From NCBI GenBank assembly GCA_963693055.1, contig OY843751.1, positions 4,672,001 through 4,736,000 on the forward strand: a stretch of DNA of 64,000 nt, read 5' to 3'. The first letter of the stretch is position 1; every line of letters starts with the position of its first letter. This DNA comes from a bacterium. GTDB lineage: Bacteria; Zhuqueibacterota; Zhuqueibacteria; Residuimicrobiales; Krinioviventaceae. Shown piece after piece: positions 4,223-53,868 of the stretch. The notes beneath the pieces are model-generated. The model was not told where the DNA came from. It did no database searches and saw only the letters and a program-made list of their open reading frames with translations. The translations under genes and the position numbers were made by a program.

Positions 4223-5392
4223 TTATTTATTCCCTTTTGCTCTATTGTGCGTTTTACATAACATTTGACAGTTATTAATATCTGTTGCTCCGCCTTTACT
4301 CCACGCTGTGACATGGTCTGCATCCATTTCACTGAGTTTCCAAATTTTTGTTTTGTTAGAGTCGTGTCCAATTGCACATAAAGGACAGTTCGAAATACTA
4401 TCTTCTTCTGCTTCTGATGTTTGTTTCTTATAAATAGTTTTTTTTGTAGCCTCGTCAAAAACTCTAACTTCTAAAAGCTTTGTATCTGTTGAGCCACCAA
4501 GTATATATTCAAAGACCCCTTTCCGATTCTTAATATAAGGGTCTCCATAAAGTTCATTTACCTGCTCTGACACTTTTTTAGCATTATACGATTTTTTGTG
4601 GTATTCTTCATAAAGACGACCCCATTCAAGCCCTTTCATTTCAGATTCAACGTCTGTAAATACAGTTGAAACCCAGTCAATAACGCAATTGAAATATGTT
4701 TTTAGTTCATTAATATTGGTATCATGACGATGACGGCTCATATATCCCCCAATATTACCTTTGCTTACCCAATCAAATGCACGTTCCAAAAAATCTTGAC
4801 GGTTAGCACTGCCTTTTATATATGCACTCCATTTTTGAATGTTAGCGTTTTGAGAATTACTAAATTCCTCTTTTGCCAAAGTAACAAATTGACCAGAATA
4901 AACAGCATTTAGCAATTCTTGATTGCTTAGCGGAACCCCTGCAATATTGATTGTTTTAAACCATTCTTTAATCTCACTTTCAGTTCCCTCGCACTCATAG
5001 ATAAGAAGTTTTGTATCTAAAATCTTATTCTTTTTATCTACTGCAAAACCACCGAATAATTGTTCATTACCGTTTTCATCTTTGATAGCAAATTTATTTG
5101 TAACGAAACGGCCAAAACTTGTAATGCGTTGTTGGCCATCAAGAACCTCCAATTTATCATCACTAACTTTATTAAAATATATCAATCCAATAGGATAACC
5201 TTTCAGTATTGACTCAATAACGGCAATCTCCCTTTTACCACCATCGGAAGCATAAATGTAATTTCTTTGATATTCAGGTTGTATAGTTAGTTTTCCCGCA
5301 AGTCCAAATAATCCTTTACCTTCAAGTTCATTATAGACAAAGCCTTCACAAATATCTTTTACTGTAATGTCCGTTATTAATGTCGTTATCAT
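4223..5392 (-). CDS. DUF262 (ParB-like/GmrS-like) + HNH endonuclease, putative restriction endonuclease
   Basis: QPEYQRNY and LDGQQRITS (DUF262); C-terminal CPLC...DADHVTAWSKGG...NCQMLCKTHNRAKG (HNH); directly downstream of a methyltransferase. Confidence 0.85.
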   Translation of the reverse strand: MITTLITDITVKDICEGFVYNELEGKGLFGLAGKLTIQPEYQRNYIYASDGGKREIAVIESILKGYPIGLIYFNKVSDDKLEVLDGQQRITSFGRFVTNKFAIKDENGNEQLFGGFAVDKKNKILDTKLLIYECEGTESEIKEWFKTINIAGVPLSNQELLNAVYSGQFVTLAKEEFSNSQNANIQKWSAYIKGSANRQDFLERAFDWVSKGNIGGYMSRHRHDTNINELKTYFNCVIDWVSTVFTDVESEMKGLEWGRLYEEYHKKSYNAKKVSEQVNELYGDPYIKNRKGVFEYILGGSTDTKLLEVRVFDEATKKTIYKKQTSEAEEDSISNCPLCAIGHDSNKTKIWKLSEMDADHVTAWSKGGATDINNCQMLCKTHNRAKGNK

Positions 5393-5396
5393 TTGC

Positions 5397-6524
5397 TTAC
5401 CTTTTCTTTATAAAAATTCGCTTGTATACTTTTTTGTTTTTTACATAGGGCTCGTTATGCTTCTTAAAATGTGGTAATTTATATTTTTCATCAACAACAC
5501 CGTTATCACTTGCACCAATTATTTCAAACTGTTCAGGATTGTATTTGTCTAAGAAAGTAATGGGTACACCCATCACACCGTCATAATCACTTGGTATAGC
5601 ATCTGTATAAGGAACCTCAATTGCATCATAATTATCATATTTTGTATACTCTTTTCCTTTAATATTCTTATGGGAGCTAAACCTAATATTATCATTCATA
5701 GTCATCAAAGGTAGTGGTTGGTGTCTTTTGCCGTGGTCTAAATTAGTGAACCAGAGACAATTGTTTGTAGCTACAATTCTATTTCCATCTTCATCAATAC
5801 GAGCTTCTGTTCCAAATAACTCGTATGTTTCCGGCACAATAAAACCAGAAATCCAGCGCCCCATTCCAGTTCCAAGCCACATCTTATTTTCTTTAATCAA
5901 AGGGAATACTTCTTTATATGTAATGGCATTAATATTTGCAATAATTAAAAATTTCTTCTCATATTCGACAAGTTGCCTTATATACTGGCGAAAAAGACTA
6001 AATGGTGGATTGGTAACTACAATATCGGATTGTTTCAATAATGATATAGCTTCATCACTTCGAAAATCACCATCCCCATTTAAAGGTGTCCATTCATTTT
6101 GCTTATTATGTTTTAACTGCAATGCTACATCTTTCAAGCTAAATTCGCCATCGCCATCAATATCCCCAACTGAATTAATTATAAATCTATTGGCTGTTAT
6201 CTTCGGACGTCCTTTTACTTTTATAAGGGTCGAGTCATCGCCAAATAATTTAATTTGCGTATTGGCAATAGGTGAAGGCTTATAACTGGTTGTAATAAGC
6301 TGTTTTAAACCAATTCGCTTAAAGTTTAAAACGAAATATCTAAAAAAATTACTTTCAAATGGATCATCACAGTTACAATAAACAACTTTACTTCGAAATA
6401 CATCAGGATTAAATTCAAGATAAGCTTCAATCTCTTTTTGGATATCATTATACTGTGTATAAAATTCATCACTTTTAGATCTTTTAGCTTTATGTAGTAA
6501 TTTGTTCGTTGCATTTCTTGCCAT
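5397..6524 (-). CDS. Adenine-specific DNA methyltransferase, EcoRI family
   Basis: DEFYTQ, VYCNCDDP..SNF, GDFRS.E, DIVVTNPPFSLFR (motif IV NPPF), YDNYDAIEVP and GVMGVPITFLDKYNPEQFEI. Confidence 0.9.
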   Translation of the reverse strand: MARNATNKLLHKAKRSKSDEFYTQYNDIQKEIEAYLEFNPDVFRSKVVYCNCDDPFESNFFRYFVLNFKRIGLKQLITTSYKPSPIANTQIKLFGDDSTLIKVKGRPKITANRFIINSVGDIDGDGEFSLKDVALQLKHNKQNEWTPLNGDGDFRSDEAISLLKQSDIVVTNPPFSLFRQYIRQLVEYEKKFLIIANINAITYKEVFPLIKENKMWLGTGMGRWISGFIVPETYELFGTEARIDEDGNRIVATNNCLWFTNLDHGKRHQPLPLMTMNDNIRFSSHKNIKGKEYTKYDNYDAIEVPYTDAIPSDYDGVMGVPITFLDKYNPEQFEIIGASDNGVVDEKYKLPHFKKHNEPYVKNKKVYKRIFIKKR

Positions 6525-7554
6525 GAAATTAAATATCCTTATTTAAATCTAAATTTTACATTTGTAAAAATCAGTTTTCAATTTTGCACTATCGACTCTT
6601 ACACTTACCACTTATAGACGTATATTATCATTGTGCTTATACTGCCATAATAGATGTACAACAATAATTATTTATATATTTCTTTTATCAATTCTGTTTT
6701 AATACTCATACATATGAATAACATTCAACATGTTTGACAACCAACTATATAATGCAAAAACTTGTCGTATAACAAAAATATACAAAGCATGTCAAGCTTT
6801 TAAAAATCAGAATTTTATCATTAAAAAATATGCTGTTGCTTTTATGTTATATGACTTTTATAACATAAAAGCATTTTATTATAATATTGCGCCACTAGGA
6901 TTGTGAATATCTTTATCGTCATAGTTAGATACATAAGAATAGATCGTCGTACGTAAAAATGATTTCCACCAAAAGCCCCATATAATTATATTTTAAAAAA
7001 TAATTAATGAATTTCCATAAAAATATGCAACTAAAAAGTGCCCTAGTTCTTAAAAAATGACGATTAAATAATTTATACACCCTTTGTTATCAACTTACCT
7101 TGCGAAACCAACCCCCAATATTCCCAATCGCTTCGCTGAACTCATTTCCCCAACGGTGCCAAATTTAATAAGAGATGATCAATTCACGACATACCAGAGC
7201 GACTTTTTCATCGAATACCTTTGCCTACACAAAATCGCCGTTTTTTTAACTGGCTCCGTAACTCACATGATCTTCCTTATGCTGTCTAATAGTCCGTAAA
7301 GTCGTCTACTTCAAATGCCGCTTGCTTCAAACTTTCTGTCAGGGATTGAAACATACATACGTAAACCATCCTCCCAAGGGAATCAAAACCCATGGAAAGA
7401 TTCTCCGTATCTCAAGGGGTTCAATTTTCTATTATCATCAGTGTAAATCCGTGGCTAATTTCCCATTCTTTTTTTGAGCCACAGATCTGCAAAGATCCTC
7501 ACGGATTGCTTGTAAAAGTCCTACCCGATCCCCTCATTCTCCGTCCCAAATTCG

Positions 7555-7830
7555 CAGACAGTGTAAAATTAGAAAACAATTTTGTTTTTGGAGTGCATCG
7601 CCTTTATGCGATGCGTCGGACCGAAGGTCCGATTTAAATCCGCCTGCATTTCAAATATTATAGATTCATTATTATGATGTAAATTCAATATTTTTATACA
7701 AATATAGTTGAGTAGAGGCCGTCTTTGACGGCCCGCTGTACATAAAGGTACAGCACTCCACGTCTTTGTCATTTCTCTAAGGATTAATTATATTTCCATT
7801 TTTTTAGTATTAATTTTTTTTCACAGTCTG
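7555..7830. mobile_element. 276-bp non-autonomous TIR-bounded insertion (MITE-like) interrupting a REP-like hairpin
   Basis: The ends cagacagtgtaaaa (7555-7568) and tttttcacagtctg (7817-7830) are 12/14 inverted repeats. The flanks tctccgtcccaaatt and ttgatttgggacgga are the two halves of the hairpin that is intact at 3942-3970. No transposase is present. Confidence 0.65.
7588..7761. repeat. Inverted pair of GTAG/GTGG-type REP-like elements (7588-7633 and 7712-7761)
   Basis: ttggagtgc-atcgc-ctttat-gcgat-gc-gtcggacc-gaa-ggtccgat versus the reverse-complement copy gtggagtgc-tgtac-ctttat-gtaca-gc-gggccgtc-aaa-gacggcct: same scaffold, different stems that still pair. Confidence 0.7.
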
Positions 7831-7964
7831 TTGATTTGGGACGGAACTATGGTGCAAAGCTCTGCTTTGCAAATATCTATAAATTAAGGTATTGTGAACT
7901 GTGCAATTCTCTCCAGGCACAGCCTGGAGCCAACTTTCCTGCCCAAATCCAATTCGGGCAGGAG
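7831..7964. repeat. Multi-hairpin REP-like repeat, copy C (left end displaced to 7538-7552 by the insertion)
   Basis: Matches 3956-3998 exactly and aligns to the reverse complement of 2161-2290. Confidence 0.8.
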
Positions 7965-8028
7965 ATTTGTGAGCATTCAACAGTCATACAAGGATTGAGA
8001 ATCCTCGGGAAGATTTGCTATTAGACTC

Positions 8029-9224: not shown

Positions 9225-10934
9225 TCATTGTTTTCTTTGCTCATCTTTGATTCGCTCAATCATTTGTTTTCCATTTTCATTATCAGAATTCAATTCAATG
9301 GATTTCTTGTAATATAGCAATGAAAGATCATAGCGCCTGGTGTTATAAAAATATTCCGCATAACTATCCCAAACATTAAACGCATTCGGAAAAATCAATG
9401 TATTAACTTTGAAAACAGATCCTGCTCTTTCCAAATCACCTTTTTGCATCAAAACATAGCCTGCATTATTTATACTCTTTTCAAGCACCTTTTGATCAAA
9501 AATAGTAGACCACTCATAGTTTTTATATTTATCCTTCAAATGATGATAATACTCTAAAGCCGCACTGGCACCATTATCCGCTGCATAATCCGGAACGGAA
9601 ACCAACTCTGTACCATCAATAACCAATTCTAAAGCAGGATCATTACCCGAAAAGTAATCCTTACTTGAAAATGGAGCGGGAACATTGGGTTGAAAATATA
9701 TCGTTTGTGATGACCATGCATTATCTATTTGTCTCGATGCAATACCCAATCCGAACCCACTGTTAGGAAGATTTCCGACAAATTTCATATCACTAAAAAA
9801 ATTAAAAGGAGATGCCGAAGGCTCACCTATAAAAACAGCATTTGTATGTACTGCTAATTCGGTCATTAATATTACTGCTGCACTATATGTCCGATTACCA
9901 ATAAACACAAACACATTTTCTTTACCATTCAATTTATCTCTTTTAATAATTTGATTTATAAATGGTATTAACAGCCGACCATTCCCACCATCATTATAAC
10001 GTATATCCAGCACAAGTTTATCAATCTCATTTTCATGTAGATCAAAGTATGACCAAAAACGCTCAGAGAATTGAAAAAATGTTTCATTATTACCCGGTTG
10101 GTTAGCAACTTGGTTCAGTTGAAAATAAATAATTTTTTCATCAGACAAATGTTCAAACCAATAAAATTTCACATTCTTGTCTTGTTTTCTTAAATGAAGG
10201 GGAGTTGCTTTACCTAGAATTGTAGCCGCATGAACATATTCTCCCTCTGTAGGCCCCATATTTAACCTGTTAGACCAGGTGATTTTGCTGTTATCATGTA
10301 TTGATTTTAATGTAAGACTTTTTCGTTCACCATCTCTTGTCATTAAATCCAAACGTATTCTTTCTAAATTATCTCCTAATCCTAATCCATTCAATACTCT
10401 GGCAAATGTAATTCCCCGAAGCGCCGGACTTTTCCTACCGAACTTGGAATCCAAATTCGTAACACTTTCAAGAACAGACGTCACCTCTTCTATAGATTGG
10501 CCATTCACATTAATAACACGGGAACCCAAATATTGCTCATGTTCTTTATCGATGACTGTTATAAAAACACCATCTGAAAAATGGGCCAACCTAAAAGGGA
10601 ACCTTAAATCAGTTAAATCTAAAAACCCTTGATCAAAAAGTTGTGTATGCCCATCTTGAATGCTTGCAATAACTTTTTTAATTGAATAAAAAGCCCCCAA
10701 ATCCGATTCTGCAGCTTTTATTTCATTCACAGCCTGTTCAACAATAGAATTAAAATCATCTCGGGTTACTCTATAATATAGATTAGGATGATGTAATTTC
10801 AGATTTGATACTACAAAATCAAGATCATTTAACCACTGCTCAGTTGTAAATGCTTTTCCTGTTGTTGCAAAAACCTGAGATATAATACCAAAAACAAGAA
10901 TCAAAGAAATTTTCAAGATCTTCATAATTAACAA
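9225..10934 (-). CDS. Exported S41-like (tail-specific) peptidase-domain protein with C-terminal TPR
   Basis: Signal peptide; DGHT, LVLDIRYNDGGN, TYSAA and FIGEP motifs; TPR-like C-terminus (INNAGYVL...NVWDSYAE...KKSIELN). Confidence 0.7.
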   Translation of the reverse strand: MLIMKILKISLILVFGIISQVFATTGKAFTTEQWLNDLDFVVSNLKLHHPNLYYRVTRDDFNSIVEQAVNEIKAAESDLGAFYSIKKVIASIQDGHTQLFDQGFLDLTDLRFPFRLAHFSDGVFITVIDKEHEQYLGSRVINVNGQSIEEVTSVLESVTNLDSKFGRKSPALRGITFARVLNGLGLGDNLERIRLDLMTRDGERKSLTLKSIHDNSKITWSNRLNMGPTEGEYVHAATILGKATPLHLRKQDKNVKFYWFEHLSDEKIIYFQLNQVANQPGNNETFFQFSERFWSYFDLHENEIDKLVLDIRYNDGGNGRLLIPFINQIIKRDKLNGKENVFVFIGNRTYSAAVILMTELAVHTNAVFIGEPSASPFNFFSDMKFVGNLPNSGFGLGIASRQIDNAWSSQTIYFQPNVPAPFSSKDYFSGNDPALELVIDGTELVSVPDYAADNGASAALEYYHHLKDKYKNYEWSTIFDQKVLEKSINNAGYVLMQKGDLERAGSVFKVNTLIFPNAFNVWDSYAEYFYNTRRYDLSLLYYKKSIELNSDNENGKQMIERIKDEQRKQ

Positions 10935-11197
10935 CCTAAACTTTATTTACACAAAATAAATTCAACCTGGTTAGTAAAAGAAATCCGGTGTATTAGTATA
11001 TTACTTTTTCAGTATTAAGACAATCTTTTTTAGGTAAAATTCACTACAATTGCTTGATCTAAATCAAATCAGTATATAATAATAAAATCCATTTACCAGA
11101 TCAGCTAATACTCACATTTGTGGAGATTTACTATCCCTGTTTGAATAGTGTCTCTCCTTAATCCAATTTAACAAAATTAATAAAAAATATTGGATCG

Positions 11198-11872
11198 TCA
11201 AAACCGGTAGCTCAACAAATCCATTTTAACGCCAGGGCCACCACAGGAATCACGGAAATAACCCACCTGGCCTATAGACACACTTTTCTCTGATTTGACG
11301 GGACCCAGATTGTAGGCAAGCATTGAAAATGCAGTTGGCAAGACATATGTTAAAACGACTCCCAAATTAGAATCTGCGGTTTCAAGCGCTACCATAGCAA
11401 TACCGGTCCCCAAAACAGAGCCGCCCAACGCCCATAGAAACGATCTGTTTTTCTTTGCAATCAATCCTGTAACATGTACGCCACCCGCTATTCCCAACGC
11501 GTAACCTGCAAAAACCGTAAGAAACAATCCTCCCACATCTGTATCCCGATTATTGATAAACTGATTGCCATCAATTGCCAATCCCGCTGCTACACCCAGG
11601 GCTCCCCCCAATTCTGCCATTAGTAACTGCACCACGTAATAGTCGGTTTCATATACAGGCTGCTTCATATCAGACAACCGCAAAGCATTCATCGAAACAC
11701 CCGGTTCTGAATTATACCGAAAAGTATTCATACGCATGTCGTTCTGAAGAGCATTGGAACGGGAAAAAAGATGATGACCGGATGAATTGTTTTGAATTTG
11801 TGCAGAGACTAACGAGCTGATCATAAACAGCAACACCAACATCACTTGTCCAAAAACTATTTCTTTTCTCAT
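11198..11872 (-). CDS. Exported glycine-zipper membrane protein, paralog array member 7
   Basis: Signal peptide; Gly-rich hydrophobic segments; C-terminus GQVGYFRDSCGGPGVKMDLLSYRF shared with neighbours. Confidence 0.85.
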   Translation of the reverse strand: MRKEIVFGQVMLVLLFMISSLVSAQIQNNSSGHHLFSRSNALQNDMRMNTFRYNSEPGVSMNALRLSDMKQPVYETDYYVVQLLMAELGGALGVAAGLAIDGNQFINNRDTDVGGLFLTVFAGYALGIAGGVHVTGLIAKKNRSFLWALGGSVLGTGIAMVALETADSNLGVVLTYVLPTAFSMLAYNLGPVKSEKSVSIGQVGYFRDSCGGPGVKMDLLSYRF

Positions 11873-11895
11873 AACTTATTCCCTCACAAAAAACA

Positions 11896-12606
11896 TTAAA
11901 ACCGATAGTTTAACAAATCCATTTTAACACCAAGGCCGCCGCAGGCATCTTGATAATAGCCAAGCTGTCCCACAGAGATTTCTTTTTTACTTCTGTTATA
12001 ATCTAAATTCGAACTTGAATTATAATAGAGCATTGAAATAGCAGGCGGTAAACCAAATGCCGCAATGAATCCCATAGCGTTCGAATCAAAATCACCTCCC
12101 AGTGAAGCGAGGGTTAATCCAATTCCCGCACCTACTCCAAACATTGTTCCAACCAAAGCACGCCAATAGGAACCATCATCAATTCTATCTTTACCAACCT
12201 TATTCACACCTATTGGTACAGCAAAAAGATATCCAACATAAGCACCCACAATGGAATAACCCAATGCTTCCAAACCACCATCTCCAGCTAGCCCTAAAAC
12301 TAAAAAACCGGTACCTCCAGCAAGTATACCCAGCGCACCACAAACTTGAGACGTAATGAATTGCTCCACATAATAATCAACAGTTAAATTATGATTCTCA
12401 AACGTCTTTGAGCTATTCAATGGATTAGAGTTCAAGTTAGTACAATATCGATCCAAATGAAATGTATTTCCTCCCTGGTAATTATAGGGAATTAACCTTA
12501 CAGAAGGATCACCGCACTCGGCAGACTCTTTCCCCAATAATGTTGCACTCGTGTTCAATAATAAACAAAACATTACAATCCTAAAACCATAATAATCCAT
12601 ATCCAC
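11896..12606 (-). CDS. Exported glycine-zipper membrane protein, paralog array member 6
   Basis: RLIPYNYQG motif; C-terminus GQLGYYQDACGGLGVKMDLLNYRF. Confidence 0.85.
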   Translation of the reverse strand: MDMDYYGFRIVMFCLLLNTSATLLGKESAECGDPSVRLIPYNYQGGNTFHLDRYCTNLNSNPLNSSKTFENHNLTVDYYVEQFITSQVCGALGILAGGTGFLVLGLAGDGGLEALGYSIVGAYVGYLFAVPIGVNKVGKDRIDDGSYWRALVGTMFGVGAGIGLTLASLGGDFDSNAMGFIAAFGLPPAISMLYYNSSSNLDYNRSKKEISVGQLGYYQDACGGLGVKMDLLNYRF

Positions 12607-12712
12607 CTCTCAAAATAACCGTATCCACATGTATTCATCTAACTTTTTTGTTTTCCCAAAATTATCGGGCTACCCTTTTCAAAAATTGATCATCCCTCCA
12701 AAAGTAACCAGA

Positions 12713-13408
12713 TCAAAACCTGTAACTCAACAAATCCATTTTAACACCGAGGCCTCCGCAGGCATCCTGATAATAGCCAAGCTGTCCCACAGAGATTTCT
12801 GGGGAATGATCAGTCTCTTTCAACTCTTTGTGATCTTGGGGTTTTGTTTTTTTATTATACATAGCCATTGAACAAATTGGGGGTAACAAAAAACCAGCTG
12901 TGATACTCAAAGTTGAATTACCGGGATTTGAATCCGTTTCCAATGCTAAAACACCAATTGCTATTGCTGTGCCTAATAGGGAACCCAACAATGCACGTTT
13001 GTAAGATCCGTTTTGCCCAAATGCTTCACCTATACCATATGATCCCAATGAAACTCCCATAGCAAACCCTGCATAAGTAGACAGCACTCCTCCGGCCATC
13101 GAACCGTCAAGAATATTAAAACCTATTAATGCTCCTGCAAATAAACCCAAACACCCCGATACTTCGGCTATAATAAATTGTCCAGCCAAATAATAACCAT
13201 CATAAAAATCTATATTTGTTGCTACAGCAGATTCACGATCATTTAATTGTGGAGATTGATATTGACACAGATTTACCGACCTCTCACCCTGATAATTGTA
13301 TGGTACCAACCGGGGAGTGTTATCGGATTTGCTTTCGGGTTCCTGTGCGTAAACCGTAAAAGAGAATGCCGTGCAGATAGTGACAAGAAACAAAAAGCGG
13401 TTTTTCAA
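12713..13408 (-). CDS. Exported glycine-zipper membrane protein, paralog array member 5
   Basis: TTG start after AAGGAG; signal peptide ..VYA-QE; RLVPYNYQG; C-terminus GQLGYYQDACGGLGVKMDLLSYRF. Confidence 0.85.
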   Translation of the reverse strand: MKNRFLFLVTICTAFSFTVYAQEPESKSDNTPRLVPYNYQGERSVNLCQYQSPQLNDRESAVATNIDFYDGYYLAGQFIIAEVSGCLGLFAGALIGFNILDGSMAGGVLSTYAGFAMGVSLGSYGIGEAFGQNGSYKRALLGSLLGTAIAIGVLALETDSNPGNSTLSITAGFLLPPICSMAMYNKKTKPQDHKELKETDHSPEISVGQLGYYQDACGGLGVKMDLLSYRF

Positions 13409-13647
13409 AATATGTCTCCTTGATAGAATTATAACCCAAACAGGAATTTCCCCATGCGTTTTTTATTTTAGTTTTTTAATCTGTAATGTATGTATGTACG
13501 AATGGATATGCTCAATGTTCCATTTTGAAACCGCGCAAATCCTGCTAAAGGCCGGGAGTACTTTTGAGAGTTCAACACTAGAAAAAAACAGCATTCAATC
13601 CTATCATCCTTAAATCCTATGAATCATAATTCAGACAGGTAACCAGA
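13409..13647. repeat. 239-bp intergenic direct repeat, copy 1
   Basis: About 8 mismatches (hand count) against 14356-14594, offset 947 bp. Confidence 0.95.
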
Positions 13648-14355
13648 TCAAAACCTGTAACTCAACACATCCATTTTAACACCGAGGCCTCCGCAGGCAT
13701 CCTGATAATAGCCAAGCTGCCCCACAGTGATTTCAGGGGATAAATCAGTCTCTTTGAATTTATTGGGATATTTGGGTTTAAATTTTCTGTTATAATTTAT
13801 CATGGAACAGATTGTGGGCATAAGAAGCAATGCAGGACCTGTAAATACCGGAGTCTTGCTGTCTTTTTCTATTGCTGCTATGGTCATTCCTATACATGCC
13901 CCAAATAAAGAACCTTTCAGTGCTCGCCAATATGTACCATTTTGTACCTGTTTATAACCTGTTCCGTGTACTCCAAAAGCAACCCCTAATGTATACGACG
14001 TATACCCCACAACGATTGCAGCAGCAAGTCCATCCCATCCCTCTCTCCTGAACAAAGCTGGCCCCACGAGTACACCGGTTGTCATCCCAAGCCCACCTAC
14101 AAACTCTGCCATTAAAAATTGTTTAACAAAATATCCGACCGTAGCGCCTTGACCGGTTTCTGATAAAGGTTCGACAGAACCCTGTAAATTCAATGGACCG
14201 GGATTACACCAATACAAGTTGACAGTACTTTTGCCATGAAAATTATACGGAACCAGCCGGGGAGTATTATCGAATTTGCTTTCGGGTTCCTGTGCGTAAA
14301 CCGTAAAAGAAAATACCATACCAATACTAAGAAGAAACAACAAACTGTTTTTCAA
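13648..14355 (-). CDS. Exported glycine-zipper membrane protein, paralog array member 4
   Basis: N-terminus nearly identical to member 5 (FSFTVYAQEPESK.DNTPRLVPYN); C-terminus GQLGYYQDACGGLGVKMDVLSYRF. Confidence 0.85.
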   Translation of the reverse strand: MKNSLLFLLSIGMVFSFTVYAQEPESKFDNTPRLVPYNFHGKSTVNLYWCNPGPLNLQGSVEPLSETGQGATVGYFVKQFLMAEFVGGLGMTTGVLVGPALFRREGWDGLAAAIVVGYTSYTLGVAFGVHGTGYKQVQNGTYWRALKGSLFGACIGMTIAAIEKDSKTPVFTGPALLLMPTICSMINYNRKFKPKYPNKFKETDLSPEITVGQLGYYQDACGGLGVKMDVLSYRF

Positions 14356-14594
14356 AATATATCTCCTTAATAGATTTATAACCCAAACAGGAATTTCCCC
14401 ATGCGTTTTTTATTTTAATTTTTTAATCTGTAATGTATGTATGTACGAATGGATATGATCAATGTTCCATTTTGAAACCGCGCAAATCCTGCTAAAGGCC
14501 GGGAGTACTTTTGAGAGTTCAACACTAGAAAAAAACAGCATTCAATCCTATCATCCTTAAATCCTATAAATCATAATTCAGACAGGAAACCACA
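14356..14594. repeat. 239-bp intergenic direct repeat, copy 2
   Basis: Near-identical to 13409-13647. Confidence 0.95.
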
Positions 14595-15290
14595 TCAAAA
14601 CCTGCAACTCAACAAATCAATCTTAACGCCAGGGCCGCCGCATGCATCCTGATAATACCCAAGCTGCCCTGTAGATATTTCTGGTCCATGGGATTTAGTG
14701 TTGCCTTTATTATATAATATCATTGAAAGCGGAATCGGCAGTAGAAACGTCAATGCCGCCCCCACATTGGCTACTTCTGAACCTTGGCCCGCGATAATGG
14801 CGCCCAGCCCAATACTGGTTCCAATTGCAGATCCCATCAAGGCGCGTAAAAACGGCAAATCCTTATTATTGATGATACCAACCACATGCACACCTGTTGC
14901 AACTCCCAGAGCATATCCCGCATAAGCAAATCCAACCAGCTTTACAAAATCACTGCCTTCTTCATCATCACTGAATTCAACCCCGCTAAAGTTCACTCCT
15001 GCTGCTGTCCCCAACGCTCCCCCCAATCCTGCTATTAAAAACTGTGATATTAAATACCCGCCTTCTGGTGGTTTGCTATTTTTTACGGATATATTATCTG
15101 AATAACTGAATAAAATCGAATTCGCATGATACCGGTTTAAATCCACTCCCATATCCTTTTGCTGAATAAAGGGAATAATTCGGGCTGCATTTTCAAATGT
15201 AATACCTAAACCCGGATCGGTCGCATACACTGCCTGCGCAAATAAAAGACATACCATTAACACACTGCTAAAGCCTAATTTTTTTTTCAT
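14595..15290 (-). CDS. Exported glycine-zipper membrane protein, paralog array member 3
   Basis: Signal peptide; QFLIAGLGGALG; C-terminus GQLGYYQDACGGPGVKIDLLSCRF. Confidence 0.85.
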   Translation of the reverse strand: MKKKLGFSSVLMVCLLFAQAVYATDPGLGITFENAARIIPFIQQKDMGVDLNRYHANSILFSYSDNISVKNSKPPEGGYLISQFLIAGLGGALGTAAGVNFSGVEFSDDEEGSDFVKLVGFAYAGYALGVATGVHVVGIINNKDLPFLRALMGSAIGTSIGLGAIIAGQGSEVANVGAALTFLLPIPLSMILYNKGNTKSHGPEISTGQLGYYQDACGGPGVKIDLLSCRF

Positions 15291-15377
15291 TCAAGCACCC
15301 CATTCCAGTTTGTAAACCCGGATTTATCCCCGGGAACCTAAAAAAATTCTATACCGATTACAAAGCAATTCCGACTA

Positions 15378-16085
15378 TTAAAATCTACAACTCAATAAAT
15401 TCATTTTAACGCCTGGTCCGCCACATGCATCCTGATAGCATCCAAACTGACCGGCAGATATTTCCACAGGACTGGTTTTATTCGCACTTGCAACAGAATC
15501 TCGTTTATTATAAAGCATTATGGAACATACAGGTGGCAGCAAAACAAGAGACGAAAGACTAATTACGGCCTGGGGCTTGTTATTATCCAATTGAGAGGCA
15601 ATGGCTATTGCCAATCCTGCTCCAATCAAAGACCCTTTTAGCGCCTTACCAAAAGAACTGGAGACATTTGCATAACTCCCAACCTTGTGCACACCAAAAG
15701 CCGAACCCAAGGCATACCCGGCATAAGCACCGATCACGACAAATTCAATACCATCCATGTCTTCACTTTGGCCATCAACAAAAGGTATGCCGCAAATTCC
15801 CCCAACAAAGGACATGACTATACCATCAATTTCTGCAGACACAAATTGTTTAATATGCAATTTCGAATTTATTTTTTTTTGTTCTTTTTGATTAAATTTG
15901 GATAATGCACTTGCAGAGTCCTGTCCGGTATTCATACTATAGAGAACAGATTTATTCTCACCGCTGCTACAAAAAGATACCGGGAATAATTTCTCAACAG
16001 CCAGGATTTTTGAGGCAAACAACAGTATAAAAATCAACAAAAAACTTGAATGTATTAACCGAATGTTCAACATTTCCCCTCTCAA
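15378..16085 (-). CDS. Exported glycine-zipper membrane protein, paralog array member 2 (start may be the second Met, 16073)
   Basis: Signal peptide; QFVSAEIDG; C-terminus GQFGCYQDACGGPGVKMNLLSCRF. Confidence 0.8.
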   Translation of the reverse strand: MRGEMLNIRLIHSSFLLIFILLFASKILAVEKLFPVSFCSSGENKSVLYSMNTGQDSASALSKFNQKEQKKINSKLHIKQFVSAEIDGIVMSFVGGICGIPFVDGQSEDMDGIEFVVIGAYAGYALGSAFGVHKVGSYANVSSSFGKALKGSLIGAGLAIAIASQLDNNKPQAVISLSSLVLLPPVCSIMLYNKRDSVASANKTSPVEISAGQFGCYQDACGGPGVKMNLLSCRF

Positions 16086-16114
16086 ATATTAATAATCGCA
16101 ATAGACAATCAGCT

Positions 16115-16870
16115 CTAAAATTGCCAGCTAAAAACATTCACATTTACAACATTACCCCTCTTTTCATCATGAGAATAGTTGAACGCATTCAGGGATAATC
16201 CTACATTCCCGCCATCAATGCTCACAACCGAATCCAGATAATTCATATGGTTGGTAATATTATAACTTGCTATAGCGCCTATGGTTGGCAAAAAAAGTGT
16301 CAAGACCGAAATACGTCCCTCATCATTAAATTCTTCATCACTATCATCATAAGCATTTTCAATCATTATTCCTATCCCTGTTCCAATTACCGCGCTGGTC
16401 AACGTCCACCAAAACGATCCGTCTCTGTCCGCCTTTTCACCGACCCTATACACACCATCCACAACCCCATATGTATAACCAGCGGATATAACATAATATC
16501 CGGTATCAGACAAATCCCAATCATTCCCCAATTGTGCAGCATATACAACCAGGGCACTTGCAAGCAGACACATTAGCCCTTCGGTTTCTGCCATTAGAAA
16601 CTGTAAACCATAATATTGAATTGAATTAAAAACACTGAGATCCTGGGCCCTGTATCCATCAGACACTGAATTGAGCTTAACATAGTCCAGACTATAGGTT
16701 TCATTACCCTGATAGTTAAAAGGAACCAAAACCGGACCATCGTCAATAGTCTTAATTTGACGGGTCATTGCAAATGTGTTTTTATTACTCTGTAAAAGGT
16801 CTTGCGCAAAAACCATTGAACAAAAAATCAGTGTTACTAAAACCCCGGCCCGTATTGATCTGAGATACAT
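16115..16870 (-). CDS. Exported glycine-zipper membrane protein, paralog array member 1 (most divergent)
   Basis: Signal peptide; LVPFNYQG, YYGLQFLMAE, DGSFWW.L...IG and LP.IG..SYN motifs; C-terminus VVNVNVFSWQF. Confidence 0.8.
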   Translation of the reverse strand: MYLRSIRAGVLVTLIFCSMVFAQDLLQSNKNTFAMTRQIKTIDDGPVLVPFNYQGNETYSLDYVKLNSVSDGYRAQDLSVFNSIQYYGLQFLMAETEGLMCLLASALVVYAAQLGNDWDLSDTGYYVISAGYTYGVVDGVYRVGEKADRDGSFWWTLTSAVIGTGIGIMIENAYDDSDEEFNDEGRISVLTLFLPTIGAIASYNITNHMNYLDSVVSIDGGNVGLSLNAFNYSHDEKRGNVVNVNVFSWQF

Positions 16871-21872: not shown

Positions 21873-23594
21873 ATGACTGGTGCAGAAATGATTTTACATG
21901 CTTTAAAAAAAGAAGGCGTAAACGCGGTTTTCGGTTATCCGGGAGCCTCGGTAATCGACATTTTTGATTTACTGTATGAAGGAGAAATCCCGTTTTATCT
22001 GGTCAGACATGAACAGGGCGCGGTACACGCGGCAGACGGTTTTGCCCGCGCATCCGGCAAAGTGGGAGTTTGTCTGGCTACTTCCGGACCCGGTGCTACC
22101 AACCTGGTAACCGGTCTGGCTACAGCTCATATGGATTCTATCCCCATGGTTGCCATTACCGGGCAGGTAGCCACCCACCTGATAGGAAACGATGCGTTTC
22201 AGGAAGTCGACATGGTGGGTATCAGCAGACCCATTACCAAGCACAACTATTTGGTTAATTCAGTAAAAGACTTGCCCAAAATTTTAAAACAGGCTTTTCA
22301 TATTGCACGTAGCGGCAGGCCCGGTCCGGTTTTAATTGACATTCCCAAAGATCTTCAACGAATGGAATGTACCGTTCCCTATCCGGATAAAGTAGAAATC
22401 TCCAGCTACAAGCCAACCTTAAAAGGCCATACGCAGCAGCTTAAAAAAGCGATAACATTAATCGAACGCAGTAAAAAACCGGTCATTTACGCGGGCGGTG
22501 GCGTTATTGCCAGCGAAGCAAGCAGCGAACTGCGGACCTTTGCTGAAAAGATCAATGCTCCTGTTACAACAACCTTGATGGGATTAGGGATTTACGATGA
22601 AACCGCACCCAACGCACTAAAAATGCTGGGTATGCACGGTACCGAATATGCCAATTACTCTATTCAGGCATGCGATTTGTTAATTGCAGTTGGTGCTCGG
22701 TTTGATGACAGGGTAACCGGAAAAGTTGATAAATTTGCACCCAATGCCAAAATCATTCATATTGATATCGATCCCACAACCATCCGTAAAAACGTTCAGG
22801 TAAATATACCTATTGTTGGAGATGTAAAACATGTTCTGGCAGATCTGGTAGAAATGATTGAGCAACAAGATAAAGCAGAATGGATTTCACAGGTGCGGGA
22901 ATGGAAAGAAAAGCATCCCCTGACATTTAAAAACGATGGTTTTATTCAACCCCAATTTGTGATCGAAAAAATCGCAGAAATGACAGACCATAAAGCAATT
23001 ATTACTACCGAAGTGGGGCAGAACCAGATGTGGAGTGCACAGTTTTTCAATTTCAAACATCCGCGAACCTTTTTATCATCCGGCGGCCTGGGAACCATGG
23101 GCTATGGATTCCCCGCAGCTATTGGTGCCCAAATTGCCCACCCGGATAAAGTTGTGATTGATATTGCAGGCGACGGCAGCATTCAAATGAACATACAGGA
23201 ACTGGCAACAGCTGTTTTGTACCAAATACCCGTCAAGATTGTAATCCTTAACAATCGTTCCTTGGGCATGGTAAGACAATGGCAGGCCATATTCTATGAC
23301 AAACGATTTGCTTCAACCTGTATGCGCCGAAATGCCCAATGTCCACCGCAGTGTGAACAAACTGAAGAATTTTGCCCTACCGAATATGTGCCCAATTTCG
23401 TCAAACTGGCAAAAGCCTATGGTGCAACCGGTTTTTACGCGGACAAAGTTGAGGATGTAGTACCCACTTTGGGAAAAATGTTGAATACGCCGGGTCCTGT
23501 TGTTGTTGAATTCAAGATAGAAGCAGAAGAAAATGTTTACCCCATGGTGCCGGCTGGCGCACCTATTCATGAAATGATAAGAGGCATGGCATAA
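21873..23594 (+). CDS. ilvB: Acetolactate synthase large subunit, copy 1
   Basis: FGYPG, RHEQGAVHAADG, TSGPGATN, DAFQE, LGMHG, RFDDRVTG, ThDP motif GDGSIQMN...NN, GMVRQWQ. Confidence 0.97.
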   Translation: MTGAEMILHALKKEGVNAVFGYPGASVIDIFDLLYEGEIPFYLVRHEQGAVHAADGFARASGKVGVCLATSGPGATNLVTGLATAHMDSIPMVAITGQVATHLIGNDAFQEVDMVGISRPITKHNYLVNSVKDLPKILKQAFHIARSGRPGPVLIDIPKDLQRMECTVPYPDKVEISSYKPTLKGHTQQLKKAITLIERSKKPVIYAGGGVIASEASSELRTFAEKINAPVTTTLMGLGIYDETAPNALKMLGMHGTEYANYSIQACDLLIAVGARFDDRVTGKVDKFAPNAKIIHIDIDPTTIRKNVQVNIPIVGDVKHVLADLVEMIEQQDKAEWISQVREWKEKHPLTFKNDGFIQPQFVIEKIAEMTDHKAIITTEVGQNQMWSAQFFNFKHPRTFLSSGGLGTMGYGFPAAIGAQIAHPDKVVIDIAGDGSIQMNIQELATAVLYQIPVKIVILNNRSLGMVRQWQAIFYDKRFASTCMRRNAQCPPQCEQTEEFCPTEYVPNFVKLAKAYGATGFYADKVEDVVPTLGKMLNTPGPVVVEFKIEAEENVYPMVPAGAPIHEMIRGMA

Positions 23595-23658
23595 AAATAA
23601 AATATTTAAAATGATTGACGTTATTTATTTAAAAAACAAGACATAAAAATTTTTTTTA

Positions 23659-23686
23659 TTGACTTTATCAAATAATTAGTTATATT
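23659..23686 (+). promoter_or_regulatory. Putative sigma70 promoter of ilvB unit 2
   Basis: TTGACT-16 nt-TATATT in an AT-rich intergenic region. Confidence 0.5.
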
Positions 23687-23720
23687 TATTAATTCAATAG
23701 TATAATATTTAGAAAAATTC

Positions 23721-23930
23721 ATGAGCACACATACGGCCACAAAATCATATCCTTTTTCAAACCCGTTAGCAATAGCTTACGGTAGGGGAGCTGTGTGCGT
23801 ACGTAATACGAATCTGAATATTCTACCATCCTTGTTAGTAAACTTACCGGGTGTGATTGTGCGACGCCTGGTGGTCGTGCCCATCATTATTCTAAACCTC
23901 TTGCTAGTGCTAATTCGCCTAAGCGAATAA
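23721..23930 (+). CDS. Putative ILV attenuator leader peptide 2 (69 aa, Ile/Leu/Val-rich C-terminus)
   Basis: Ends VIVRRLVVVPIIILNLLLVLIRLSE with four CTA Leu codons; paralogous to leader 1. Confidence 0.72.
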   Translation: MSTHTATKSYPFSNPLAIAYGRGAVCVRNTNLNILPSLLVNLPGVIVRRLVVVPIIILNLLLVLIRLSE

Positions 23931-24060
23931 AATACATGGTGCAAGAGGAAGCCAAAAAAATTTAATACACTACACAAAGCCTAAACGACCCGGAAATCGG
24001 GAATATCCTCTGCACCATGAGACAAGGTGTTTTTTAAAATTTGATGAGGTATTTTTTTTT
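23897..24060 (+). promoter_or_regulatory. Putative transcription attenuator 2
   Basis: cctcttgc (23897-23904) and tcctctgcaccatg (24006-24019) are both complementary to catggtgcaagagga (23935-23949). Downstream are a gcacc/ggtgt stem with a U-tract and a second T9 run at 24052-24060. Confidence 0.62.
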
Positions 24061-24099
24061 GAGCAAAAAACAATACATACAACAAAAAAAAGGATTGTT

Positions 24100-25821
24100 A
24101 TGACTGGTGCAGAAATGATCGTTCACGCTTTAAAACAAGAGGGTGTACGTGCGTTATTCGGTTACCCGGGTGGTTCGGTAATCGATATCTTTGATGTATT
24201 GTACAATTCAGATCTTCCATTTTATCTTGTGCGGCATGAACAAGGTGCAGTCCACGCTGCAGACGGTTTTGCACGTGCATCCGGTGAAGTGGGTGTCTGC
24301 CTTGCAACTTCAGGACCGGGGGCCACAAACCTGGTGACAGGTTTAGCTACAGCTCATATGGACTCTATTCCGATGGTGGCAATAACAGGACAAGTTCATA
24401 CACATCTGATTGGTAACGATGCATTTCAAGAAGTAGACATTGTTGGCATCAGCAGACCCATTACAAAGCACAATTATCTGGTGAGTTCGGTTGATGAATT
24501 GCCTAAAATTTTGAAACAAGCATTTTATCTGGCCCGCACCGGCAGACCTGGTCCGGTATTGGTGGATATCCCCAAAGATATTCAACAAACCGAGTGCAAA
24601 GTCCCCTATCCGGATAAAGTAGAAATTCCAAGCTACAAGCCAACAATGAAGGGTCATTTGCAGCAGCTTAAAAAAGTTGCCAAAGCAATTGAACAGAGTA
24701 AACAACCCGTCATTTATGCAGGTGGTGGAGTTATAGCAAGCGAAGCAAGTAATGAACTCCGCACTTTTGCTAAAAAGATCAATGCTCCTGTAACTACAAC
24801 CCTTATGGGACTTGGAATTTATGACGAAACTGATGATGACGCATTAAAAATGCTGGGCATGCACGGTACGGAATATGCCAATTACTCTATTCAGGCATGC
24901 GATCTGTTAATTGCGGTTGGTGCTCGCTTTGATGACAGAGTTACCGGCAAAGTCGATAAATTCGCAGCCAATGCTACAATTATTCATATCGATATCGACC
25001 CTACAACTATTCGCAAAAACGTTCAGGTCAACATTCCCATTGTTGGTGATATTAAACATGTTCTTACTGATCTGAACGAGCTCATTGAACAGCAGGATAA
25101 AAAAGAATGGATGTCTCAGGTTCATGAATGGAAAGAAAAACATCCACTGGTTTACAAGAACGATGGACATATTCAGCCACAATATATCATTGAAAAACTG
25201 GCTGAAATGACTGATCACAATGCGGTTATCTCTACCGAAGTGGGTCAAAACCAGATGTGGGCGGCACAGTTTTATAATTATAAACATCCACGTACCTTTT
25301 TATCATCTGGTGGTTTGGGAACCATGGGTTACGGATTTCCCGCAGCCATTGGCGCCCAAGTTGCCCAGCCGGACAAGGTTGTTATTGACATTGCGGGTGA
25401 TGGCAGCATCCAGATGAACATACAGGAACTGGCTACCGCAGTATTGTATCAGATCCCCGTCAAGATTGTTATTCTCAATAATCGCTCACTCGGTATGGTG
25501 AGACAATGGCAGGGTATATTTTATGACAGACGCTTTTCATCTACATGCTTGCGGCGCAATGCCATGTGCCCGCCGCAATGTAAACAAACTGAGGAGTTCT
25601 GCCCGAACGAATACGTCCCAAATTTCGTCAAACTGGCAGAAGCCTATGGTGCAGCCGGACTTTATGCGGACAAAGTTGAGGATGTAGTACCCACTTTGAA
25701 AAAAATGCTGAATACTCCGGGCCCGGTTGTTGTTGAATTCAAGATAGAAGCTGAAGAAAATGTTTACCCCATGGTGCCGGCTGGTGCCCCAATCCATGAA
25801 ATGATAAGAGGAATGGCATAA
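24100..25821 (+). CDS. ilvB: Acetolactate synthase large subunit, copy 2
   Basis: Same motifs and same length (573 aa) as copy 1; stop overlaps the ilvN start. Confidence 0.97.
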   Translation: MTGAEMIVHALKQEGVRALFGYPGGSVIDIFDVLYNSDLPFYLVRHEQGAVHAADGFARASGEVGVCLATSGPGATNLVTGLATAHMDSIPMVAITGQVHTHLIGNDAFQEVDIVGISRPITKHNYLVSSVDELPKILKQAFYLARTGRPGPVLVDIPKDIQQTECKVPYPDKVEIPSYKPTMKGHLQQLKKVAKAIEQSKQPVIYAGGGVIASEASNELRTFAKKINAPVTTTLMGLGIYDETDDDALKMLGMHGTEYANYSIQACDLLIAVGARFDDRVTGKVDKFAANATIIHIDIDPTTIRKNVQVNIPIVGDIKHVLTDLNELIEQQDKKEWMSQVHEWKEKHPLVYKNDGHIQPQYIIEKLAEMTDHNAVISTEVGQNQMWAAQFYNYKHPRTFLSSGGLGTMGYGFPAAIGAQVAQPDKVVIDIAGDGSIQMNIQELATAVLYQIPVKIVILNNRSLGMVRQWQGIFYDRRFSSTCLRRNAMCPPQCKQTEEFCPNEYVPNFVKLAEAYGAAGLYADKVEDVVPTLKKMLNTPGPVVVEFKIEAEENVYPMVPAGAPIHEMIRGMA

Positions 25822-52125: not shown

Positions 52126-53544
52126 TTATACAACCCGCAAATAATCAACCATGGAGCATCTGCGCATGCGTGTAAATGTGCGCGCGGAAGTAATTCCTTC
52201 TCCGGTTGGGCTGGCAATACTATGGCTCAAATACCCTTCGCCACCAATACCAAGTCCCGCAAAGGATGGCCCGTTTTTCACAAACAAAGTACAGTTCATC
52301 AACTTTGCCATCTTGGTCATATTTTCAACATTTTTCGAGTGCATGAGTGCAGTATGTCTAAAATTGTGTTCTACTTTTTGGGCCAAAAGTATAGCTGCGT
52401 CAACATTGGGTGAACGTAAAAAGGGTAAACAATTCATCATTTGTTCGGCAACAACAAAGGGGTGATCATTCGGAGTTTCTGCAAACAACATTTCAGTATC
52501 CGCGGGGATGCTTATACCCAATGCATCCGCCAGATAGTGTGCATCTTTACCAACAAACTCGCGGTTCAGAACAGGTTCACCAGATCCTTTACCACCATCT
52601 TTAAAAACAATCTCTGCCAGACGGTCAATCTGTTCAAGAGTCAGTTCAAATGATTTATGTGTAACAAGCTGACGTTTCAATTCGTCGGCAATACTTTCAA
52701 CAGCAATAATAATTTTTTCGCCAATACATAACAAATTATTATCAAATGTAGCACCTTCAATAATGCTCCTGGCAGCATTGGCAAGATCTGCGGTTTCGTC
52801 TACTACAACAGGAGGATTACCAGGGCCAGCACAGATAGCACGTTTGCCCGCTTTCATAGCAGCTTTAACAACACCGGGACCACCGGTAATACATAATATA
52901 TTAACCTTGGGATGAGTGAACAAAGTTTGACCGGTTTCCATAGTAGGATTTTTCACACAGGTGATCAAATTTGCAGGTCCACCAACTTTGACTATTGCTT
53001 CATTGATCAATTGAACGGCATAATTGGTTACGTTCTTTGCACCTGGGTGAGCATTGGCAATAATTGAATTACCGGCTGCAATCATGCTGATTGCGTTATT
53101 GATCATAGTTGGTACAGGATGGGTCGAAGGTAAAATAGCTCCAATAGTACCAAAAGGTGCCATTTCTACAACCGTCAGTCCATGATCACCAGACCAAGCA
53201 ATGGTCTCCAGGTCTTCAACACCCGGGGTATGCTTTGAAGCCAGTTTACATTTTTGTATTTTATGTTCAACACGGCCCATTTTTGTTTCTGCAACCGTCA
53301 TTTGGCCAAACTCAACTGCATTGTCCTGACCTACCTGGCGAATGGCTTCAATGATATCTTTGCGCAATTCAATAGTGCTGTCAACCAGCTTGAGCTGTGC
53401 TTCATATGCCGCGTCTATTGCATCTTCAATATTATCAAATACACCGGTTGAACAGGTCGTGCAAGTGCTGGATGCACCTTTTTTTTCAACATTCAACTCG
53501 GTCAATACTCGCTGCACTATGGCAGATATTTGTTTTTCATCCAC
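52126..53544 (-). CDS. CoA-acylating aldehyde dehydrogenase (EutE/PduP family) with N-terminal encapsulation peptide
   Basis: EKQISAIVQRVLTEL; ET.MGR, GD.GLT, P.T.P, TGGPGVV, AGPGNPP, SII.GA.FDNNL.C..EK, A.PTGEG.TSARTFTR.RRC. Confidence 0.93.
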   Translation of the reverse strand: MDEKQISAIVQRVLTELNVEKKGASSTCTTCSTGVFDNIEDAIDAAYEAQLKLVDSTIELRKDIIEAIRQVGQDNAVEFGQMTVAETKMGRVEHKIQKCKLASKHTPGVEDLETIAWSGDHGLTVVEMAPFGTIGAILPSTHPVPTMINNAISMIAAGNSIIANAHPGAKNVTNYAVQLINEAIVKVGGPANLITCVKNPTMETGQTLFTHPKVNILCITGGPGVVKAAMKAGKRAICAGPGNPPVVVDETADLANAARSIIEGATFDNNLLCIGEKIIIAVESIADELKRQLVTHKSFELTLEQIDRLAEIVFKDGGKGSGEPVLNREFVGKDAHYLADALGISIPADTEMLFAETPNDHPFVVAEQMMNCLPFLRSPNVDAAILLAQKVEHNFRHTALMHSKNVENMTKMAKLMNCTLFVKNGPSFAGLGIGGEGYLSHSIASPTGEGITSARTFTRMRRCSMVDYLRVV

Positions 53545-53570
53545 AGTATTATTCCCTTATCCAATACAAC

Positions 53571-53858
53571 CTATTTTTGATATACTACTTTACCCTTGAA
53601 TTCCATTGTATCAATAATACCAATGATACACGTATCCGTGGGTACACTTTCCATATTGACGGCCTGTCGCGCTGAACTGCCGCGAACCAGAATGACCATT
53701 TCATCAATTCCGGCGCCAACTGTATCTACAGCAATCACATTGCCAGATGATGCCTTGCCATCCGGTGAAACCAGATTTACGATCATCAACTTGCTGCCGG
53801 ACAATTTTTTGTCCTTGATGGTTGACACAACCGTACCAACTACTTTACCTAATTCCAC
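53571..53858 (-). CDS. eutN: BMC pentamer (EutN/CcmL family)
   Basis: GKVVGTVVST.KD..L.G.KL...AVDTVGAG..E.V..V.GSSAR...P.D..I.GIID. Confidence 0.92.
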   Translation of the reverse strand: MELGKVVGTVVSTIKDKKLSGSKLMIVNLVSPDGKASSGNVIAVDTVGAGIDEMVILVRGSSARQAVNMESVPTDTCIIGIIDTMEFKGKVVYQK

Positions 53859-53868
53859 AATAACTCCT

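Follow-up and report, generated by a model that had tools for sequence, protein, structure and literature searches.

What do seven adjoining, related genes for small exported proteins do, and to which membrane do their products belong? This question is raised by a tandem array in a window of 64,000 nucleotides (nt; contig OY843751.1, positions 4,672,001 to 4,736,000, the whole stretch of DNA analysed here) from the genome of a member of the Krinioviventaceae. A preliminary description, made from the letters alone, had proposed that these genes form an undescribed system of exported glycine-zipper proteins. All seven open reading frames (ORFs) are real and co-oriented on the minus strand, and they encode proteins of 224-251 amino acids (aa), which we named a1 to a7. 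The array is a genus-level expansion of an unnamed, widespread bacterial family. Our preferred reading, to which we assign a probability of roughly 0.45, is that the products are outer-membrane helix bundles with outward variable loops for variant-specific binding, with a tail that assists at an Omp85 insertase and a repertoire that is changed by recombination. The genes are listed below in order of transcription; G001 is a second genome of the same genus.

16115..16870, minus strand: a7, 251 aa, which opens the array and has a divergent tail ending in FSWQF; its G001 ortholog is 79% identical.
15378..16085, minus strand: a6, 235 aa, probable start at an ATG 12 nt inside the listed ORF; G001 ortholog 82% identical.
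14595..15290, minus strand: a5, 231 aa; G001 ortholog 90% identical.
13648..14355, minus strand: a4, 235 aa, with ends in common with a3 and a divergent core.
12713..13408, minus strand: a3, 231 aa, the modelled member.
11896..12606, minus strand: a2, 236 aa, probable start at an ATG 6 nt inside the listed ORF; absent from G001.
11198..11872, minus strand: a1, 224 aa, which closes the array; G001 ortholog 88% identical.

The genes are separated by 23-239 nt, and their products can be aligned as one family with pairwise identities of 22-51%. Behind an N-terminal hydrophobic segment, four further segments were found in a1-a6, and only three scored in a7; the anchors QF..AE, G..G..GV, GS..AL.G and LP...YN are present in the alignment of the seven. 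Signal peptides were called by eye together with a hydrophobicity rule. Other details of the preliminary description needed qualification. The tail is indeed common to six members, but at 71-96% identity (mean 82% over the last 24 residues) "nearly invariant" was somewhat strong; the a7 tail is unlike the other six, yet also Phe-terminated. The loops were said to share almost nothing, which holds for the helix 1-2 loop (11%) and the helix 3-4 loop (9%) but not for the helix 2-3 loop (30%), which comes close to the helices themselves (35-42% among paralogs). The NYQG-like motif ascribed to most members is clear in a2, a3, a4 and a7, degenerate in a5 and not clear in a1 and a6, and where each gene had been credited with its own ribosome-binding site, a3 and a4 have a 5/6 Shine-Dalgarno match and the remaining five reach 4/6 only. 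The host genome is closed (6.5 Mb). A relative of the array proteins from another genome of the phylum (P0122, encoded at L042 in G094) carries the source name 'candidate division KSB1 bacterium', which places the window in KSB1. Short-read contigs from public runs span most of the array with zero differing letters in the listed pieces; since they match, the array is no assembly artefact, though the window may itself derive from those runs.

Searched against 1.84 billion proteins with an E cut-off of 0.001, a profile built from the seven retrieved 680 clusters (50% identity). Family statistics refer to the best 150 of these 680 clusters, and the family alignment (A4) consists of 142 of these plus eight array proteins. 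Neighbors in the ESM Atlas were unnamed clusters from Aminicenantota, Ignavibacteriota and Myxococcota. None of the seven scored above cut-off in Pfam or NCBIfam, Pfam-type library scans of the 150 members gave clear names for passenger domains only, PADLOC and PHROGs had zero matches among 29 members, and the best PDB sequence match had an E of 0.054, its aquaporin and HlyE rows being taken as chance. The family is thus unnamed in these searches, as the word "undescribed" had anticipated, and literature searches, thin on subscription journals, turned up no publication about it. Within the phylum, matches were found in 23 of 167 genomes (at most 16 candidates were scored per genome, and many assemblies are fragmented), ten each only in the window's genome and G001 and one or two elsewhere; arrays occurred in two of the 167, both of one genus. 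Scans reaching close relatives only gave no further arrays in JGI metagenomes and no relatives on viral contigs or plasmids. The eight array proteins form one clade (FastTree, 85 of 150 cores) with a support of 0.975, which long branches may inflate. Three solo paralogs lie elsewhere in the window's genome: one tailed, one tail-less, and one tail-less with an in-frame stop. This last paralog (L026:3435-3986; G000:C1 about 53434-53985) has a TAG at codon 49, and its ortholog in G001 is intact.

With an alignment of the seven sequences alone, AlphaFold returned a weak model (predicted local distance difference test, pLDDT, 51). With the 150-sequence alignment it predicted for a3 four helices (residues 70-99, 104-129, 136-160 and 166-185) with a core pLDDT of 90-98, followed by a hairpin at 74-84 with strands at 210-214 and 220-224, the final residue scoring 46; a two-strand tail had been expected from the letters. 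GxxxG repeats lie on the hydrophobic helices, with conserved glycines at 81/85/92/96, 110/114/118/122 and 142/146/150 (a3 numbering), so that the predicted signal peptides, the glycine spacing and the modelled helices bear out the description as exported glycine-zipper helices. Conservation falls on glycines, on one proline and on residues at helix ends; no catalytic set was apparent among these positions, nor any conserved polar pore residues other than helix caps. Foldseek searches of PDB and BFVD gave nothing with an E under 0.001. The best fold match by VIA was the membrane domain of DPM synthase (Z 8.0, root-mean-square deviation (rmsd) 3.6, 116 aligned), a Z value that by the tool's own guidance is unremarkable for helical bundles and identifies the fold neither as a known one nor as a new one. 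Tim17/Tim22/NDUFA11 recurred as weak fold rows (Z 5.6 with rmsd 9.3, Z 5.5 with rmsd 7.6; Foldseek E 0.3-0.8), and solved SlyB/YfgH-type structures were not among the fold matches listed. An internal repeat of two helix pairs was considered and rejected (probability 5.9).

The host is diderm, its genome containing 14 Omp85, 35 TonB-receptor and 13 OMP_b-brl_2 matches. Fourteen Omp85-family matches is an enlarged complement, and some of these proteins might handle unusual substrates. Which membrane the proteins occupy can be approached through charge. In 145 aligned members (five of the 150 were dropped for gaps), lysine plus arginine on the side formed by the N-terminal region, the helix 2-3 loop and the C-terminal region outnumbered those in the two other loops in 138 cases, equaled them in three and were fewer in four; the same bias was present in 8/8 array proteins. 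Net charge was +2.2 on the former side vs -2.2 in the two other loops. By our rule a signal-like segment was present in 128/145, and only 2 of these 128 had a further hydrophobic stretch before helix 1. Because the signal peptide is on the basic side and a second crossing stretch is almost never present, the basic side would be the exported one. Inner-membrane proteins follow the positive-inside rule, which an inner-membrane location of this family would therefore invert.

Cysteines point the same way. The helix 1-2 loop has two in 24, one in 2 and none in 124 of the 150 members, and the helix 2-3 loop has one pair and five singles. Paired cysteines in the helix 1-2 loop suggest a disulfide and hence an oxidising side, where an inner-membrane model would place the cytoplasm. 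The array helices are also weakly hydrophobic: on a helix score of our own, the array proteins scored 2.48 (n = 8), relatives with signal and tail 2.46 (n = 65) and the clade with neither signal nor tail, whose helices are more hydrophobic, 1.46 (n = 57). This latter clade (P0074; 56 relatives of 118-173 aa) mostly ends in K or R, with Phe at the end in 0/56, and one of its members is named Roseiflexaceae; Chloroflexota of that kind are not known to have an outer membrane. As one related clade, the P0074 relatives count once. Taken together, charge, export side, cysteines and weak hydrophobicity favor the outer membrane. According to a review (PMC13067283), Sec sorts by hydrophobicity.

We also considered that the proteins are inner-membrane or periplasmic, as ordinary four-helix membrane proteins (or soluble oligomers) in an unusual orientation, with the tail a periplasmic hairpin whose Phe end is coincidental. 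The clade without signal or tail does resemble a normal cytoplasmic-membrane protein, the tail is optional, and the best fold matches are inner-membrane helical bundles, at Z 8.0 at most, a value unremarkable for this class. Such a location is, however, at odds with the inverted charge bias, the paired cysteines in a would-be cytoplasmic loop, the weak hydrophobicity and the likeness of the tail to a beta-signal, and we consider it rather unlikely.

This likeness was quantified with a matrix built from the ends of 62 barrel proteins encoded in the same genome and ranked among 5159 ORFs. The last six residues of a1-a6 fell in the top 0.6-1.1%, above the leave-one-out median of the barrels themselves, in agreement with the proposed beta-signal; a7 was borderline (top 5.8%). 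Among relatives, 78/107 long-tailed vs 3/33 short-tailed members exceeded the 95th percentile of this score. Of the 117 members in which at least 13 residues follow helix 4, F is the last residue in 84 and L in 19, and their hydrophobic tail positions are -1, -3, -5, -6, -8 and -10. All 15 proteins retrieved by the tail alone bear the same core, and when a tail was searched in the ESM Atlas, no score exceeded 0.80. The idea that the tail is a general sorting signal was rejected, the tail profile having matched only 8 tailed family members among the 5159 ORFs. The helical core exists in three natural forms, with signal and tail, with signal only, and with neither.

How the set of genes changes was assessed by comparison with G001, which has seven genes at the same place, six of them orthologs at 79-95% identity. 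The preliminary description expected array content to differ between genomes, and it does: a2 is missing in G001, and another gene, b4, stands between the a4 and a5 orthologs. Exchange is apparent at the gene ends. The a3 ortholog in G001 has an a2-type 3' end and spacer, and the tail DNA of a4 is 96% identical to that of a3 vs 83% to its own ortholog; synonymous divergence (dS) between orthologs reaches 0.43 in the tails, against 0.17 in the cores. Contigs from runs X4/X5, perhaps not independent of G001, join 11908 to 12726, skipping 817 nt within 12 shared letters, and have 460 extra letters at the b4 place. The repeated ends are as follows.

14356..14594, minus strand: spacer of 239 bp, 97% identical to the next spacer and part of the common 5' block.
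13409..13647, minus strand: second copy of the 239-bp spacer, carrying a dispersed repeat at about 13593-13637.
14540..14584, no strand assigned: dispersed repeat of about 45 bp (AATCCT...ATTCAGACA), inside the 239-bp spacer.
12706..12802, minus strand: tail-coding repeat of 97 nt, reference copy; the common 3' block (repeat family D1).

The common 5' block consists of the 239-bp spacer, the ribosome site and the start of the signal peptide; three related copies of the spacer occur in G001. Further copies of the 97-nt tail repeat, 67-96% identical to the reference, lie at 11191, 11889, 13641, 14588 and 15371. From the placement of these blocks, whole-gene differences likely arise by homologous recombination at joints inside the shared end sequences. 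An Rfam search of the sequence had zero matches, and promoter and terminator counts were no different from shuffled sequence.

The loops behave differently from the ends. The variable helix 1-2 and helix 3-4 loops are 93% and 92% identical between orthologs vs 11% and 9% between paralogs, and in comparisons of paralog cores synonymous sites approach saturation. Being divergent between paralogs and conserved between orthologs, the loops indicate a stable repertoire, not fast hypervariation. The preliminary description had set an invariant array under purifying selection against its own proposal; purifying selection on the two loops was found (ratios of nonsynonymous to synonymous differences, pN/pS, of 0.21 and 0.26), but gene content differs and the array is thus not invariant. 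In the one genome pair compared, the set changes by whole genes and each paralog's loops are kept.

A neutral local expansion, in which a minor envelope protein was duplicated, its tails were homogenised by gene conversion and variety is not needed, would fit arrays confined to two genomes of one genus, tail exchange at the DNA level, the in-frame stop of one solo paralog, and whole-gene ratios of nonsynonymous to synonymous divergence (dN/dS) of 0.14-0.38, above the 0.05-0.08 of three neighbor genes. However, both genomes keep all six shared genes intact, the loops are conserved despite near-saturated synonymous sites in the paralog cores, and the tails of a2 and a6 remained alike in protein where synonymous sites had diverged (pS 0.82, pN 0.11). 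We regard this explanation as improbable.

In the model that we prefer, of outer-membrane helix bundles, the proteins would be exported by Sec via the predicted signal peptide, and helices as weakly hydrophobic as the scores suggest would escape the inner membrane. The N-terminal region, the helix 2-3 loop and the tail would stay periplasmic and the helix 1-2 and 3-4 loops would reach the surface, an orientation that we infer from the charge bias, the cysteine pairs and the even number of strands. Insertion would then take place as two glycine-zipper helix pairs. The Phe-ended hairpin may be handed to an Omp85/beta-barrel assembly machinery (BAM) insertase, where it would help insertion or assembly without being obligatory in the family, and subunits may oligomerise through their glycine faces, by analogy with SlyB. 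Each paralog would keep its own loops under purifying selection as the set shifts by gain and loss, judging from the one genome pair. That the variable loops bind surfaces, cells or ligands is the weakest step, and we consider it doubtful.

Several observations weigh against this model. The array's own helix 1-2 loops have no cysteine pair, the disulfide argument coming from relatives, and the signal-less clade is a single group of relatives in which one member is named. The comparison of helix scores with small polytopic proteins (0.01, n = 92) uses an inner-membrane control from the same genome that was picked for hydrophobicity. With a ten-residue score the tails rank lower (a1-a6 in the top 2.4-5.5%, a7 at 35%), owing to a shift in hydrophobic register at position -6. 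Among signal-bearing members 25/128 are tail-less, some perhaps cut at contig ends, and a tail-less match is the only one found in G002, G012, G034 and G036, which implies that the family does not need the tail and leaves the idea of hitch-hiking on a tailed subunit unsupported in these four genomes. Between orthologs, the variable loops evolve under purifying selection. In a second lineage, 14 proteins also combine constant tails (62-98% identical to P0059) with variable cores (18-29%), but this set was found by tail, so that the search selects like tails, and came without genomic context. Finally, the review cited above (PMC13067283) describes a 'positive-outside' rule for barrel proteins, which could reverse the orientation, and BAM-independent insertion of known helical outer-membrane proteins and of Wza and GspD, which could take BAM out of the model.

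Closest in layout are SlyB/YfgH and Borrelia P13, and by sequence comparison the array family is a member of neither. SlyB and YfgH are a precedent for glycine-zipper helices in an outer membrane (bioRxiv 10.64898/2025.12.22.696046). The two-transmembrane lipoproteins SlyB, YfgH, OsmB and YiaD (PF05433) share with the array small size, envelope location, GxxxG-rich helix pairs, a proposed outer-membrane location and proposed oligomerisation. In contrast to these, none of the seven array proteins has a lipobox in its first 35 residues, PF05433 was above cut-off in 0/7 (and in 4/150 relatives at E 0.00048 or weaker), and the array proteins have four helices instead of two, a Phe-ended hairpin tail and a tandem array that exchanges members.

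P13 (PF05628, TCDB 1.B.36) resembles the array proteins in its signal peptide, glycine-rich hydrophobic helices, short aromatic-ended C-terminal tail and paralog family, and is a helical protein of an outer membrane, as the array products probably are; it is counted among outer-membrane pores (PMC4827864). This raises the possibility that the array encodes P13-like channels, helical pore oligomers with paralog-specific selectivity whose 28-residue tail serves in targeting or assembly and is cleaved away. P13 is described as porin-active, with a predicted helical oligomer of about 300 kDa and with its last 28 residues removed by CtpA (PMC6879480); the P13 paralog BBA01 combines a signal peptide and glycine-rich helices with an aromatic, hairpin-like end. 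Tail-less members exist in our family, and the array is followed by an S41-family peptidase gene and preceded by glycoside hydrolase genes on the same strand. Homology to P13 was nevertheless not detected, with PF05628 matching 0/150 members at E 0.01 and nothing in the whole genome, and an hhalign probability of 3.9 against the single BBA01 sequence. The S41 gene is not at this place in G001, sugar genes are no regular neighbor of relatives, and conserved polar pore residues are lacking except at helix caps. We consider channels of this type unlikely.

The array is flanked by GH106, GH31, glyoxalase-like, S41 peptidase and aldo-keto reductase genes. The S41 peptidase, which also contains TPR (window 9225-10934), lies directly after the array, is low in GC and, being absent from this place in G001, was rejected as an array partner. 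Beyond the array, a low-GC gene pair encodes a GmrSD/HNH nuclease and an EcoRI-type methylase (window 4223-6524 and 7363-8014); it is absent from the matching G001 stretch, adjoins other dispersed repeats that match several places in L022, and makes the stretch immediately downstream of the array a variable one. On the other side, two adjoining 573-aa ORFs (window 21873-25821) are possibly a tandem duplicate, the first presumably an acetolactate synthase large subunit judging by its motifs.

The neighborhood also bears on a role in antagonism. The proteins might be contact-dependent or secreted Cdz-like pore-forming toxins whose acidic hairpin tips enter target membranes, or an immunity set against such toxins. 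Caulobacter CdzC and CdzD are surface-associated glycine-zipper proteins as well; they are 86 and 84 aa long, type I secreted and accompanied by an immunity gene (PMC5380434), in contrast to array proteins of 224-251 aa with neither a type I secretion nor an immunity gene in the array flanks (unlinked genes of the genome were not sought). The esaG and tipC immunity arrays of type VII secretion systems likewise have conserved blocks around variable parts and recombinational gene gain and loss (one genome pair here; PMC9484751), but the present array is without a linked toxin or secretion system and encodes membrane proteins with export signals and another fold. The spacer repeat, moreover, is also found at clusters of Rhs cassettes in other parts of the genome. 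On the other hand, no toxin, immunity or secretion gene recurred beside relatives (29 loci; 23/48 listed neighbors scanned with Pfam), no PADLOC or PHROGs match was found among 29 members, the loops are under purifying selection, and one clade is wholly without export signal. The earlier suggestion of contact toxin or immunity is thereby weakened, since neither the array nor the scanned relatives have a toxin, an immunity gene or a type I secretion system linked to them, and we hold it quite unlikely.

The dispersed repeat of about 45 bp had 31 BLAST matches genome-wide, both array copies included. Ten of the other 29 lie at about 2 kb spacing within C-terminal cassette clusters with downstream small genes, clusters that we take to be Rhs-type from their sequence motifs. 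Repeat sites in the window's genome include G000:C1 5148280-5159741, 2229372-2233906, 362672-362715 and 1540122-1540166. The repeat may be a mark of recombination-prone cassette loci.

Some barrels are built from several chains, trimeric autotransporters being BAM substrates of this kind. Such proteins share with the array family a Phe-ended amphipathic C-terminal strand, too few strands per chain and occasional N-terminal passengers; the array family differs in having two long strands behind four hydrophobic helices and in lacking the tail in about a fifth of signal-bearing members. A single-chain barrel would need at least eight strands, and there are two in the a3 model and at most four, two of them extra short ones, in long-tailed relatives. 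In a bolder version, a four-helix bundle that is a plain cytoplasmic-membrane protein in Chloroflexota would have been sent to the outer membrane by an added signal peptide and beta-signal hairpin; the hairpins of several subunits would close one barrel at the Omp85 insertase, same-tail paralogs would mix, and cassette exchange between constant ends would create a lineage-specific combinatorial surface code. We think this unlikely. The preliminary description had entertained combinatorial co-assembly more broadly, and as the family's general mode it has lost ground, since a family that is mostly single-copy elsewhere in the phylum cannot generally assemble in this way.

Larger family members bear N-terminal passengers (SNase in 6/150, TPR in one, FTP in one), and some have a duplicated core. 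A signal peptide, a thermonuclease-like domain, the four-helix core and the tail occur in one chain in P0042, P0052, P0058, P0064, P0082, P0127 and P0141, and one SNase-type cluster is named from Ignavibacteriales; from this domain order, an envelope-anchored nuclease is possible. In L039, L047, L048 and L059, from three genomes of one family, the gene lies between two batA/batB-type vWA genes (Pfam-confirmed for L039), and G079 has two copies in such a setting. Beside one tail-less member, L042:2221-2907 encodes a protein with a signal peptide, a P13-like 'LLSFVLPGAG' core start, a hairpin-like aromatic end and no Pfam match, possibly the same helix-plus-tail layout on another core.

Outer membranes contain almost only beta-barrels, and the route by which their few helical proteins enter is an open question according to the review (PMC13067283). 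The three natural forms of one core make outer-membrane entry comparable across natural variants. If the preferred model of outer-membrane helix bundles is true, the family would reveal an additional way for helical proteins to reach the outer membrane, and the array would be a variable surface system of the cassette type in a phylum that is known chiefly through metagenomes.

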